Positions 40,398 through 64,000 of a stretch of DNA of 64,000 bases are shown here, piece after piece; position 1 is the stretch's first letter, and the number at the start of each line of letters is the position of its first letter. Below the pieces are notes generated by a model that worked only from the letters and a program-made list of their open reading frames with translations, was not told the origin of the DNA and made no database searches. Source of the stretch: Chrysomallon squamiferum (lineage: Eukaryota; Animalia; Mollusca). The position numbers were made by a program, and so were the translations under genes. The stretch spans positions 7,254,001 to 7,318,000 of the forward strand of contig CM022668.1 of the NCBI GenBank assembly GCA_012295275.1. Reading direction: 5' to 3'.

Positions 40398-40594
40398 TTA
40401 CTCAAAATCTGAGTTTGAGTTATTAACATCATCATTGAGTTGTATAGAGTTCAGCTGTGAGTAAATTTTCTGTAGGGTTTCTTTCAGTCTTTTGTGTAGA
40501 TCCTCATCTTCACATTCCTGTAACCAACAGTAACACTGTTTGAGAATCACTTTCTTTTGAAGATAAAAATGTTTCTTTACAATGTCTTCTGTAC
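40398..40594 (-). CDS. E4-E2 fusion gene, last coding exon
   Basis: Acceptor CCCTAG|, phase 1; [27 protein letters not shown]...SDFE* resembles the BIRC6 tail (HFYLKRVEIMAQCEEW). Confidence 0.9.
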
Positions 40595-41914
40595 CTAGGG
40601 AAAAATAAAATAAAATAAATACATAAAAATATATCTAAAAGTTAAAATTTAATTGAAATAAAAGATTAAAATATTTTTTTTTAAAAAGAGTTATCTCATG
40701 CAAACAAAAATCATATAAAGACTGAGTACCTGGTTTAACTGATGCATGTGTATTTTTAGTCTTCTTATGTCATTAGTAAATAAAAATATTCAAGAAAAAC
40801 TGAGTACTGCTGGAGCCTAGTGCAGAATTAAAGGATTATTTATAGTTATTGTTAGCAGATACAGTAATAAAAAAACAACAACCCTGCAACAACTGAGTAC
40901 TGTTGAATGATTATGCAGAACTATAAAGAGTACCTAAAATTACTGCAAATACAAAAAGTCCAGAAAGACTGAGTACCTGGTGGTGGGTTGCACAGAACAC
41001 CCAGTATTGCATGTCTCATGGTGTAAAGCCGAATTTTCCAGTTGTACTGATCACTCTGTTGCTGCAGTGAAAATTTGAACAGTTAATACTTTACATTTTG
41101 CAACATCACAGTATCTCCAATTCCAACCAGTGAGAATAAACCATTATTTTCTTACATTAAAATTTTGATATCAGTTAATATTTTGATTGTATTGTGTAGG
41201 TATTGTGCTTTGTCGGATTGTTTTATACAGCACTGTGCTGTGCTGTGTTGTGTCTTGTTGTGTTGCATTGTGTTGTATTATATTGTGTTCTATTGTATTT
41301 TAGTGTTTCGTGTTGTATTGTGCTTTACTTTATACTGTATTGTATCGTGATGTATTGTGTTGTGTTGTTTTACAGTACATTGTTACTAACTTCAGCCAGT
41401 AAGAAGAAATCAATAACCTATTGAAAGTGACAAATAAACTTCCATTTATGAATATTACATTATATATTACATACTAACTTCAACCAGTGAAATTCCTTAA
41501 AAATAACACATACTGATTCTCAAAATGAACACTATAAATTTCAAAAATCTTTTAATTGAAGATATGTAAGAAATATTTTAAAACTAGCACCATGCCTATA
41601 TCATTTTAAATATAGAGCTATATTGTTATTAAACAAGTAATGCCCACTATGGTTTTTGTCAGAAATTACCTTTCCCTCTGTTGTGTCTTGTCTTCCTTCG
41701 TAGCCTGGTTCATTAAAAACAGGATCAGGCACAAGAATTATACTCTGAATTGACAGAAGTACCTGTGAGAAAAAAAAAAAAAAACCCTATATAATTTAAA
41801 AATATTGTTAGAATATTATATGGCAAAGCATAGATAACAAAAAGTCACAGAATAATGTGATACCAAACAAAATGAGTTTTTTGTATTGTATTATGATCTT
41901 TTGGACATTATTGA

Positions 41915-41972
<58 letters not shown>

Positions 41973-63121: not shown

Positions 63122-63156
<35 letters not shown>

Positions 63157-64000
63157 AATAAAATTATAATTAAATTAAAATAAATAAATACAATTATAAA
63201 TAAAATAAACTATATCTCTACATTAATGTAGAAAAACTAATATTATGTTATTTTACTGTCATGCTTTGTCACAGAACTGATTTATGACGAGTTAAAAATA
63301 AAATGATTACATGGAAGTTTCTGAATGTTTGTTCAAGTCATTTATGATCCATATTATTTTAAATCAAAATCATTATAAATATTTTCAGAAATGAATTCTT
63401 AGTTACCACTTGACAGTCCAAAACCTGTGACAGAAAGGCAATCAATTTATTTGTATCTGTTGTTTTTCCTCTTTCTTCTTCACTGGCAGATACGTTATCT
63501 GTCTTTTCTTTGGCTATCCTTTTACTAGGAGATTTGTCTCGAGCCGTCTGATTGGCTGAAATTGCTCCAACAGTTTCTGTGGGAGAGATTTCACCTTGGC
63601 TGTCCAGTTCATACAGTGATGGTGATCCTTTCTTGAACCCAGACTTATTACGCTTTGGCGAGCCAGGTTTTATTTTCTTAGACTTCACTTCTTGCTCCAC
63701 TGGAGAACTTTCGTTGCTTGAAACGTGGTTACTTGTCTCTTCATCTGCATGTCCTCTTTCTTTTCTTCTCACCCCAGGATCCAAAGTCTTCAGGTGTCGG
63801 TTTACAGCGAAGTGACTGTGCTTCACCTGTGTCAGTTTGCTGATCTTCTTCGGAACCTGTTTGGCAATGACATCTTTGACGAAATGTCCTATGTCTTTGT
63901 GAGGAAGGCGTGCGTGTTCATCCTCGTTCGGAGAGGAATCAGAATCATTCAGCTTCTCGTCAACTTCGGGAATTTCGAACGTTGTTTTTCTCTGTTTGCA
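40398..64000 (-). CDS. Multi-exon gene encoding a Ufd2/UBE4-type E4 core fused to a BIRC6-type UBC (E2) domain; 5'-incomplete
   Basis: 28 hand-assembled GT-AG exons, all phases compatible, 3981 nt in one frame. Ufd2-core motifs: [88 protein letters not shown] motifs: [47 protein letters not shown]. Confidence 0.88.
40977..41061 (-). CDS. E4-E2 fusion gene exon (UBC C-terminal helices)
   Basis: [28 protein letters not shown]; phases 0/1. Confidence 0.88.
41670..41762 (-). CDS. E4-E2 fusion gene exon (UBC)
   Basis: [31 protein letters not shown]; phases 0/0. Confidence 0.93.
42157..42268 (-). CDS. E4-E2 fusion gene exon with the E2 catalytic Cys
   Basis: [37 protein letters not shown]; Cys codon at 42232-42234; phases 2/0. 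Confidence 0.95.
42236..43045. repeat. 70-bp tandem repeat spanning the acceptor of the catalytic exon (11 copies plus 1 degenerate)
   Basis: GGTTGAAACT recurs exactly every 70 bp from 42261 to 42961; degenerate copy at about 43031. Confidence 0.97.
43577..43734 (-). CDS. E4-E2 fusion gene exon (UBC beta-sheet)
   Basis: [53 protein letters not shown]; phases 0/2. Confidence 0.95.
43735..45200. repeat. 29-30-bp satellite, about 50 copies, filling an intron
   Basis: Unit CTGTACACAAAACTAAAATACTAACTTAAT, beginning exactly at the exon acceptor. Confidence 0.95.
45303..45393 (-). CDS. E4-E2 fusion gene exon (UBC helix 1)
   Basis: [30 protein letters not shown]; phases 2/0; AAG acceptor. Confidence 0.85.
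45604..45647 (-). CDS. E4-E2 fusion gene exon (pre-UBC)
   Basis: [15 protein letters not shown]; phases 0/2 bridge the neighbouring exons. Confidence 0.75.
46011..46178 (-). CDS. E4-E2 fusion gene linker exon
   Basis: [10 protein letters not shown]...[23 protein letters not shown]; phases 0/0. Confidence 0.8.
47353..47569 (-). CDS. E4-E2 fusion gene exon (end of Ufd2 core)
   Basis: [19 protein letters not shown]...GFLVSMVKD...LSDLIKE; phases 2/0. Confidence 0.9.
48167..48590. mobile_element. Possible old MITE remnant
   Basis: 12-bp inverted termini CAGTGCAGGGTT / AACCCTGCACTG; no target-site duplication found. Confidence 0.3.
48907..48974 (-). CDS. E4-E2 fusion gene exon (Ufd2 core)
   Basis: [23 protein letters not shown], compare UBE4 LCGPKCxxLKVxNPEKY; phases 0/2. 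Confidence 0.9.
49554..49652 (-). CDS. E4-E2 fusion gene exon (Ufd2 core)
   Basis: [33 protein letters not shown]; phases 0/0. Confidence 0.88.
50365..50459 (-). CDS. E4-E2 fusion gene exon (Ufd2 core)
   Basis: [31 protein letters not shown]; phases 1/0. Confidence 0.88.
50467..50690. repeat. 92-bp tandem repeat next to an acceptor, about 2.4 copies
   Basis: ATAAAGAATG at 50478, 50570 and 50662. Confidence 0.8.
51110..51209 (-). CDS. E4-E2 fusion gene exon (Ufd2 core)
   Basis: [33 protein letters not shown], compare UBE4 NDxxFLLDESLxxLxxI; phases 0/1. Confidence 0.9.
51810..51900 (-). CDS. E4-E2 fusion gene exon (Ufd2 core)
   Basis: [30 protein letters not shown]; phases 2/0. Confidence 0.88.
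52405..52572 (-). CDS. E4-E2 fusion gene exon (Ufd2 core)
   Basis: [16 protein letters not shown]...[31 protein letters not shown]; phases 2/2. Confidence 0.9.
53307..53867. mobile_element. Non-autonomous DNA transposon (MITE), 561 bp
   Basis: Terminal inverted repeats GGGTCATTCCGTGTCAAATCA(T/C)CCAA, continuing imperfectly through TTTAAACCCGAC; TATA on both sides (53303-53306, 53868-53871) as a TA or TATA target duplication. Confidence 0.9.
54050..54180 (-). CDS. E4-E2 fusion gene exon (Ufd2 core)
   Basis: [43 protein letters not shown]; phases 0/2. Confidence 0.87.
54265..54805. repeat. Degenerate satellite, unit about 35 bp
   Basis: Recurrent AGATTGTTGTAAAAAGAAGTTTGTATTAGAAGTAC. Confidence 0.9.
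54805..55046 (-). pseudogene. Two broken copies of an expected Ufd2-core exon
   Basis: [16 protein letters not shown] is readable at about 55020-54973 but out of frame with the acceptor at 55047. A second, more degraded copy lies at about 54810-54892. Confidence 0.5.
55486..55602 (-). CDS. E4-E2 fusion gene exon (Ufd2 core)
   Basis: [39 protein letters not shown]; phases 0/0. Confidence 0.85.
55780..56206. repeat. Degenerate minisatellite, unit about 20 bp
   Basis: Recurrent AACACATTAACTCTCACACT. Confidence 0.85.
56308..56377 (-). CDS. E4-E2 fusion gene exon
   Basis: [29 protein letters not shown]; phases 2/0. Confidence 0.78.
56660..56804 (-). CDS. E4-E2 fusion gene exon (Ufd2 core)
   Basis: ...[31 protein letters not shown], compare UBE4 FxTECFFLT; phases 1/2. 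Confidence 0.92.
57243..57398 (-). CDS. E4-E2 fusion gene exon (Ufd2 core)
   Basis: [31 protein letters not shown]...ETCLAGAQI; phases 1/1. Confidence 0.92.
57975..58161 (-). CDS. E4-E2 fusion gene exon (start of Ufd2 core)
   Basis: [11 protein letters not shown]...[19 protein letters not shown]...CCSDG; phases 0/1. Confidence 0.92.
58694..58864 (-). CDS. E4-E2 fusion gene exon
   Basis: [17 protein letters not shown]..., compare Ufd2 GxxxExxSxLGxxLxxS; phases 0/0. Confidence 0.88.
58914..59041. mobile_element. Short pogo/Tc1-mariner-type MITE remnant
   Basis: TA-CAGAGCAAAACCT ... AGGTTTGTCTG-TA termini with internal ACCAC/GCCAC repeats typical of pogo-like MITEs. Confidence 0.5.
59577..59642 (-). 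CDS. E4-E2 fusion gene exon
   Basis: [22 protein letters not shown]; phases 0/0. Confidence 0.75.
59644..59985. repeat. 88-bp tandem repeat starting at an acceptor, about 4 copies
   Basis: TGCAAA unit starts at 59644, 59733, 59819 and 59907. Confidence 0.88.
60423..60486 (-). CDS. E4-E2 fusion gene exon
   Basis: [27 protein letters not shown]; phases 2/0. Confidence 0.78.
61372..61532 (-). CDS. E4-E2 fusion gene exon
   Basis: [58 protein letters not shown]; phases 0/2. Confidence 0.8.
62022..62080 (-). CDS. E4-E2 fusion gene exon
   Basis: [25 protein letters not shown]; phases 1/0. Confidence 0.75.
62732..63005 (-). CDS. E4-E2 fusion gene exon (N-terminal region)
   Basis: [19 protein letters not shown]...[17 protein letters not shown]; phases 0/1. 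Confidence 0.82.
63407..64000 (-). CDS. E4-E2 fusion gene, large N-terminal-region exon (runs off window)
   Basis: Frame open from 64000 ([13 protein letters not shown]...) to donor GTG|GTAACT at 63406; S/E/K-rich, likely disordered. Confidence 0.8.

Follow-up and report, generated by a model that had tools for sequence, protein, structure and literature searches.

A gene joining a Ufd2-type body to a BIRC6-type ubiquitin-conjugating domain, transcribed across the junction in Chrysomallon squamiferum

The window analysed here, a 64,000 nt stretch of the genome of the mollusc Chrysomallon squamiferum (assembly GCA_012295275.1, contig CM022668.1, positions 7,254,001 to 7,318,000), consists of AT-rich, animal-type DNA that is rich in microsatellites. 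On its minus strand, from position 64000 to 40398, lies a gene in which the body of a Ufd2/UBE4-type protein is followed by a ubiquitin-conjugating (UBC, or E2) domain of the BIRC6 type. A first-pass annotation had proposed that 28 exons are spliced into a single frame at this locus, and this was borne out: the exons have AG acceptors, GT donors and compatible phases, and splicing of the window letters gives 1320 codons with only one stop, at 40398. The closest named protein, from Gigantopelta aegis, is 69% identical to the exon model over around 1370 columns without a stop, and is the sister sequence in trees of both the Ufd2 core and the UBC domain. As the window begins at residue 186 of this homologue, the 5' end of the gene lies outside it; the first donor agrees better with the homologue when placed at 63407 than at 63425.

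The first exon in the window (63407..64000), the N-terminal part of which is cut by the window end, encodes a low-complexity cytosolic linker and the first helix of a Ufd2-type N-terminal region. This region extends into exon 2 (62732..63005), where position 140 of the family profile corresponds to residue 23 of yeast Ufd2. Splicing and alignment with the homologue define exons 3 to 6 (62022..62080, 61372..61532, 60423..60486 and 59577..59642), 11 (56308..56377), 12 (55486..55602), 15 to 18 (51810..51900, 51110..51209, 50365..50459 and 49554..49652) and 27 (40977..41061). A Pfam scan was made exon by exon on 23 of the 28 exons, the five omitted being those of 14-23 codons starting at 62080, 60486, 59642, 56377 and 45647. 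Six of the scanned exons matched Ufd2P_core, three of them above the curated cut-off and all in the order of the profile: exons 8 (57975..58161; profile positions 39-84), 9 (57243..57398; 98-145), 10 (56660..56804; 158-187), 13 (54050..54180; 322-360), 19 (48907..48974; 539-557) and 20 (47353..47569; 559-625, the end of the core). Exon 7 (58694..58864) is where the Pfam core region starts in the homologue, exon 10 encodes a Cys equivalent to C385 of yeast Ufd2, and exon 14 (52405..52572) encodes a signature of the family, GLDVD, at which yeast Ufd2 differs. Ordered Ufd2 motifs had been annotated between 58864 and 47353; their order is kept, but Ufd2 homology begins earlier, with the exon at 63005.

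Behind the core, exon 21 (46011..46178) encodes a short linker at the place where a U-box would start, and then the N-terminal helix of an extended BIRC6-type UBC. This module continues through exon 22 (45604..45647), identified by splicing and RNA contigs; exon 23 (45303..45393), also present in RNA contigs, with UBC helix 1, which binds the ubiquitin-activating enzyme (E1); and exon 24 (43577..43734), with UQ_con positions 24-68 and a five-residue insertion loop. Exon 25 (42157..42268) contains FNPNLY and the catalytic Cys (codon 42234-42232), exon 26 (41670..41762) contains FNEPGYE, and exon 28 (40398..40594) encodes the C-terminal helices of a BIRC6-type UBC and the stop codon. UQ_con was matched by two of the 23 scanned exons, one of them above the cut-off, and the U-box by none of the 23 at E<=1, which is the Pfam result anticipated for a Ufd2P_core and UQ_con protein without a U-box. 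The UBC domain is present as annotated at 45393-40398, but the extended module already includes the exons at 46178 and 45647. Its NPN in place of HPN and the intact Cys of KVCLS were correctly described, as was its affinity: BIRC6 is the best match in the PDB (E 3e-68), with UBE2O (1e-37) and UBE2Z (1e-31) behind it.

Contigs from four of the five RNA runs listed were compared with the locus; such contigs give neither strand nor level, and the three runs bearing the junction belong to one study. In each of these three, one contig contains the consecutive blocks 47353-47569, 46010-46178, 45604-45646 and 45302-45393 with no differences, bridging all of the joints from 47353 to 46178, 46011 to 45647 and 45604 to 45393, and its loose end continues into the start of exon 24 (43734). 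The fourth run, which covers introns, lacks the joint of exons 20-23. The gene is transcribed and spliced across the Ufd2-UBC junction. Because the contigs run from exon 20 to exon 24, two alternatives are closed for this junction. Two adjacent genes, or an assembly chimera, are ruled out by these contigs together with homologues that form single open reading frames on contigs of 4-6 kb, and a hidden U-box exon was found neither in the junction contigs nor in a domain scan of 34 homologues.

The family profile aligns to residues 23-874 of yeast Ufd2 in one stretch (E 1e-77), with BIRC6 directly behind. Structure prediction, which had been suggested as a check, gave the same picture for two homologues modelled with AlphaFold. 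The model of P0075 (predicted local distance difference test, pLDDT, 85.5; predicted template modelling score, pTM, 0.84) aligns with Ufd2 2-879 at Z 32.0 and a root mean square deviation of 5.3 over 797 residues, and with the BIRC6 UBC at Z 24.8 and 2.3 over 219 residues; that of P0017 (pLDDT 79.8, pTM 0.79) gives Z 26 to Ufd2 and Z 31 to the BIRC6 UBC. Since the models match first Ufd2 and then the BIRC6 UBC, the U-box appears to have been replaced at the point where it would begin, and their high pTM suggests that the UBC is held in a set position relative to the core. The G and both D of GLDVD are found in 68 of 69 aligned homologues, and the catalytic Cys in 67, the remaining two having gaps there.

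A search with exon 14 returned 25 matches, comprising 18 long proteins with both domains and seven fragments of 109-142 residues. When rescanned, all 18 long homologues had both Pfam domains above the cut-off (Ufd2P_core at E values of around 1e-90 to 1e-101) and no U-box. Wider searches added cnidarians and sponges, and with a divergent query both Ufd2P_core and UQ_con were present in 109 of 120 proteins among the matches listed; of the other 11, ten are UQ_con proteins that lack the core and one is an isoform with the core alone. The search for this architecture across animals found it in molluscs, an annelid, a brachiopod, amphioxus, cnidarians (Nematostella among them) and sponges. Other eukaryotic sources are amoebozoans, euglenozoans, green algae (including UBC21 of Chlamydomonas), a haptophyte and a chytrid; the named protists include Cavostelium, Pyxidicula, Protostelium, Entosiphon, Diplonema, Sulcionema and Namystynia, and the named algae and fungi include Chlamydomonas, Volvox, Trebouxia, Bryopsis, Ulva, Chrysochromulina, Aureococcus and the chytrid Gaertneriomyces. 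Both halves were matched by 152 of the 299 proteins collected, a set that contains no canonical Ufd2 sequence, and all members of a 64-member cluster in the ESM Atlas carry both families. No fusion was found among the named matches of these word-limited searches in vertebrates, arthropods, nematodes, yeasts or land plants. Three protist-type members (P0145, P0150 and P0154) have extra UIM or UBA domains.

Separate trees of the core and the UBC domain (FastTree, 40 sequences) share 15 splits at a support of at least 0.9, out of 25 and 20 respectively, and have no conflicts at a support of at least 0.95. Both recover gastropods, bilaterians, cnidarians, sponge-type rows, animals, amoebozoans and diplonemids. 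As the two trees agree, the halves have descended jointly within these groups, and the fusion is likely to be old. Rather than a swap of the U-box for an E2 in this lineage, the fusion appears to be ancient and spread across eukaryotes. In a quick IQ-TREE analysis of 75 UBC domains, the animal fusions form a clade (support 95) separate from that of BIRC6 (support 98; four of its rows were checked with Pfam). A recent capture of the UBC of animal BIRC6 is consequently not supported, and the fusion UBC appears to be sister to the animal BIRC6 lineage and not derived from it. The fusions need three label changes in this quick tree, in which P0189 and P0193, both of them short fragments without a label, fall within the amoebozoan fusions; given these changes and the open deep forks, it does not yield one origin for all fusions. 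Metagenome match P0017, for which a giant-virus origin had been considered, groups with sponge records, and that origin was dropped.

Other combinations were also seen in the collected set. P0284, called BIRC6-like on account of its length, groups in the UBC tree with ZZ-SPRY proteins. P0201, P0216, P0222, P0226 and P0259, which have 3200-4400 residues, carry ZZ and SPRY domains, often F5/8, and a BIRC6-type UBC at the end, whilst P0252 combines TLDc with UBC. Such domain arrangements suggest that the BIRC6-type UBC is a module that has been joined to many scaffolds.

The BIRC6-type features of the gene product are UQ_con, the catalytic Cys, NPN, the extended N- and C-terminal helices and the five-residue insertion loop; BIR and BIRC6 domains were found in none of 34 homologues. 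In human BIRC6, A4575, E4603/E4604 and the loop 4649-4653 govern the preference for UBA6, and Drosophila BIRC6, with short residues at the places of E4603/E4604, accepts both E1s (PMC12999496, PMC13623948); the insertion loop, which clashes with UBA1, favours UBA6 (PMC13623948). When these positions were read off the BIRC6 alignment, counting from C4666, the window protein was found to have Val at A4575, Asp at both E4603 and E4604 (in exon 24), and an insertion loop of full length. The E4603/E4604 pair is variable across the fusion family. In Chlamydomonas, UBA1 is the only ubiquitin E1 listed in PMC7522501. Dependence on UBA6, previously raised as a possibility, therefore keeps the UBA1-clashing loop in its favour but is uncertain, given the D/D pair, the bispecific Drosophila BIRC6 and a Chlamydomonas fusion alongside UBA1 alone in that list. 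Our best guess is that the built-in UBC would be charged by both UBA1 and UBA6.

The N-terminal region upstream of the window can be described from homologues. By hydropathy, a hydrophobic leader and a second hydrophobic stretch of 19 residues, followed by basic residues, are present in 16 of 18 named animal homologues, including the closest, and in none of 22 named non-animal homologues given the same test. The two animal exceptions, from Littorina and Lingula, begin at or just before a motif resembling the VCP-binding motif (VBM), and may be short gene models. The VBM, with the consensus EhRRRRLxhh, binds p97 (PMC5389986), and it is through an N-terminal VBM that UBE4B does so (PMC5559722). 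In animal homologues the VBM-like motif lies 15-23 residues behind the predicted transmembrane helix. Such motifs are found in amphioxus, the annelid, the brachiopod, cnidarians, a sponge-type record and a diplonemid, with P0145 (from the diplonemid Namystynia) having two near-perfect copies; none was found in 21 of the 22 named non-animal homologues. Shuffled proteins gave at most 0.005 matches per protein to the pattern, which was written after the sequences had been seen. Molluscs, cnidarians and the sponge-type record also have an EF-hand loop between leader and helix, which was not found in amphioxus or Owenia; EF-hand_1 was matched in seven of the 34 homologues in the domain scan. Animal homologues are predicted on this basis to have a signal peptide, a small luminal part, one transmembrane helix, a VBM-like helix and a disordered linker. 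Its absence from the non-animal sample makes it likely that the membrane anchor was acquired at the base of animals. In P0076, a divergent member, an N-terminal hydrophobic stretch is followed by an exact VCP-interacting motif (VIM) pattern (R-x5-AA-x2-R), which may point to an independent way of arriving at a membrane anchor with a p97 motif.

The fusion resembles yeast Ufd2, UBE4A and UBE4B in having the whole Ufd2 body, and UBE4B in having a VBM-like motif in front, but it is only around 20% identical to them, has a catalytic E2 domain instead of a U-box, and is distinguished by its GLDVD signature, the predicted anchor in animals and a variable residue at the place of R844 of yeast Ufd2. 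With BIRC6 it shares the extended UBC module, the best match in both sequence and structure, with its NPN, Cys, insertion loop and C-terminal helices; however, it lacks BIR and BIRC6 domains, has D/D for E4603/E4604, falls in a separate UBC clade and is one third as long, BIRC6 orthologues having around 4800 residues. UBE2O, UBE2Z and the plant UBC24/PHO2-type E2s belong to the same wider E2 group, and UBE2O likewise has a substrate part and an E2 in one chain, but these proteins score lower and have unrelated N-terminal domains. Ubc6 and Cue1-Ubc7 are membrane-bound factors of the degradation pathway linked to the endoplasmic reticulum (ER), or ERAD; such factors differ from the fusion in having RING domains or tail anchors, and we know of no E2 among them that is held by a type I anchor and has an EF-hand in the lumen. 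The ERAD factors Hrd1, gp78 and RHBDL4 nevertheless offer a parallel, combining a membrane anchor, a p97-binding helix and cytosolic ubiquitin machinery (PMC5559722).

The same architecture is found in Chlamydomonas UBC21 (Cre12.g510300), which has no predicted anchor, and in uncharacterised Ufd2P_core and UQ_con proteins already in databases under automatic names, all of them likely orthologues. In the papers found, UBC21 is no more than an E2 entry in lists, in sets of expression data and in a proteome of cilia. Few E2/E3 hybrids exist (BIRC6, UBE2O), and textbooks tie E4 activity to the U-box. Lacking both U-box and BIR, the fusion falls outside the U-box E4s and BIRC6 and may work as a blend of the two; the family is real, conserved and apparently unstudied, a variant among E2/E3 hybrids. 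In agreement with the first-pass annotation, no description of a protein with this architecture was found in the open-access literature, subscription papers being largely outside the search. A survey of Biomphalaria lists a ufd-2 with Ufd2P_core only (PMC6548493), and in the supplements of PMC4327156, file 1 excepted, Ufd2P_core appears only together with a U-box.

We give an even chance to the reading that the protein is an E4-like E2, complete in itself and placed at a membrane, likely that of the ER, where it adds ubiquitin to clients that already bear a tag and follow the p97 route. In animals it would lie on the cytosolic face of this membrane, where an E1 would charge the built-in UBC. 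The Ufd2 body would bind an already ubiquitinated client, as the N-terminal domain of yeast Ufd2 binds K29 chains and the UBL of Rad23 (PMC5303827), and would hold it next to the charged UBC cysteine, so that neither a U-box nor a free E2 would be needed. Ubiquitin chains would thereby be extended or branched on proteins that are on their way to p97 and the proteasome. Weakly consistent with this are the position of Chlamydomonas UBC21 as the only E2 in protein-degradation co-expression modules (PMC8226298) and its upregulation under high lead stress (PMC7838096).

Several observations count against such a role. The nearest E2 relatives, BIRC6 and UBE2O, are not known to be chain-extending E4s. 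All encoded outside the window, the anchor, EF-hand and VBM-like motif have been recognised only in homologues, by a simple hydropathy scan and post hoc patterns, and the mollusc VBM-like motif has Trp for the conserved key Arg. The place of R844 of yeast Ufd2, a candidate Cdc48 contact (PMC7017255), is Arg in 25 of 69 homologues and in none of nine gastropod-type rows, and exon 20 encodes Ala there. For the family, the link to p97 and Rad23 that had been proposed is plausible; in gastropods it is weaker. The N-terminal domain, which in Ufd2/UBE4 ligases binds K29 chains and the UBL of Rad23/Dsk2, is the least conserved part, with the lowest model confidence (pLDDT below 50 over much of residues 1-114 in the P0075 model), although its fold is aligned in that model and the profile match runs from Ufd2 residue 23. 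Chlamydomonas UBC21 was found in plus-gamete cilia, which is not an ER setting (PMC9561859). Finally, around 50 core residues (Gigantopelta 878-927, with a PEF motif) are without an intact exon between 55486 and 54180.

A possible, though on balance doubtful, alternative is that the protein resembles UBE2O and BIRC6 in being an E2/E3 hybrid that works independently of an E3, and that its Ufd2 body has turned into a receptor for particular clients, single ubiquitins or short chains being attached with no need for p97 or pre-formed chains. The UBC does belong to the BIRC6/UBE2O group, the p97 features are degenerate in gastropods, no VBM-like motif was found in 21 of 22 named non-animal homologues, and the invariant acidic GLDVD surface, unlike that of yeast Ufd2, may be a new binding site. 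However, the P0075 model preserves the complete Ufd2 fold together with its N-terminal domain, VBM-like motifs occur from amphioxus, annelid and brachiopod to cnidarians, the sponge-type record and a diplonemid, and some protist homologues have UIM or UBA domains.

The signal-peptide-like start, EF-hand loop and single transmembrane-like helix of molluscs, cnidarians and the sponge-type record would also suit an animal signalling receptor at the ER or cell surface, its luminal or extracellular EF-hand sensing calcium or a ligand and controlling ubiquitin transfer in the cytosol; an anchor likely added at the base of animals fits this too. We consider such a receptor improbable: amphioxus and Owenia have no EF-hand loop, there is mostly only one EF-hand, and several hundred poorly conserved, low-complexity residues between the membrane and the catalytic body make direct coupling of the two unlikely.

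A similarly small chance is given to a tethered E2 that cannot do without an additional E3 of the RING or U-box type, in the way that Ubc7, anchored by Cue1, serves Hrd1, or that carries a ubiquitin-like protein, and not ubiquitin, via UBA6. With the U-box missing, no evident element would prime the E2~ubiquitin for discharge, and the insertion loop by which BIRC6 favours UBA6 (PMC13623948) is kept at five residues. BIRC6-type and UBE2O-type domains, however, work without a separate E3, to judge from the names of PDB entries, and Chlamydomonas has the fusion yet UBA1 as its only listed ubiquitin E1 (PMC7522501).

The gap in the core and the repeats at exon borders bear on a further possibility, that of damage to this animal's copy. 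Neither tblastn nor a self-BLAST of the window revealed an intact copy of the missing segment. Two frameshifted partial copies of its exon, recognised by homologue alignment and covering the first half of the core segment with the PEF motif, lie within 54800..55050 on the minus strand, at around 55050-54970 and 54892-54800, next to a tandem repeat; if they are skipped the reading frame stays intact. As this repeat is AT-rich, an assembly error is likely at the gap, and an assembly fault appears a likelier cause than real loss. At exon 25 the acceptor and the first ten codons are repeated in tandem as ten 70-bp copies (42269..42998, minus strand), each of which runs into a stop, and only the eleventh, at 42268, continues to the catalytic Cys; the ten are possible decoy acceptors or micro-exons. 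We nonetheless regard it as very improbable that the copy is damaged, whether by loss of these core residues or by mis-splicing into decoy acceptors before the catalytic exon, in spite of the segment between exons 12 and 13 being present only as broken copies, and of the ten stop-ending copies of the exon 25 acceptor, as the remainder matches the Gigantopelta protein without a stop, branch lengths in the trees are ordinary, the gene is transcribed and spliced, and the gap adjoins a repeat prone to assembly error.

Building on the preferred reading of a self-contained E4-like E2, we tentatively suggest, as a possibility on the unlikely side, that the fusion is a third branch of the Ufd2 family, a one-chain E4-E2 as old as the last eukaryotic common ancestor, which in animals would span the membrane in type I orientation with its EF-hand in the lumen, recruiting p97, building or branching chains alone and maybe tuned by calcium. 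If this is true, the branch has been missed by the field, having no member among the named matches from vertebrates, arthropods, nematodes, yeasts and land plants. A whole Ufd2 body with its own E2 constitutes a natural experiment on the role of that body without a U-box, and informs how BIRC6-type domains pick UBA1 or UBA6. Should the anchor hold, an ERAD-like component would be added to most of the invertebrate phyla sampled. Chlamydomonas (Cre12.g510300) and Nematostella both carry the gene, so that these proposals are directly testable.

Two minor features of the window may be added. Several introns of the fusion gene hold repeats grown from exon borders, also at 43760-45150 and 59730-59980, and at 54300-55050 on the minus strand it is a degenerate tandem repeat of 30-35 bp that the broken core-exon copies adjoin. 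On the plus strand, opposite to the fusion gene, a neighbouring gene is represented by a stop-free frame at 25380-29003, 1207 codons from stop to stop, near the end of which four C2H2-like zinc fingers can be recognised by eye.

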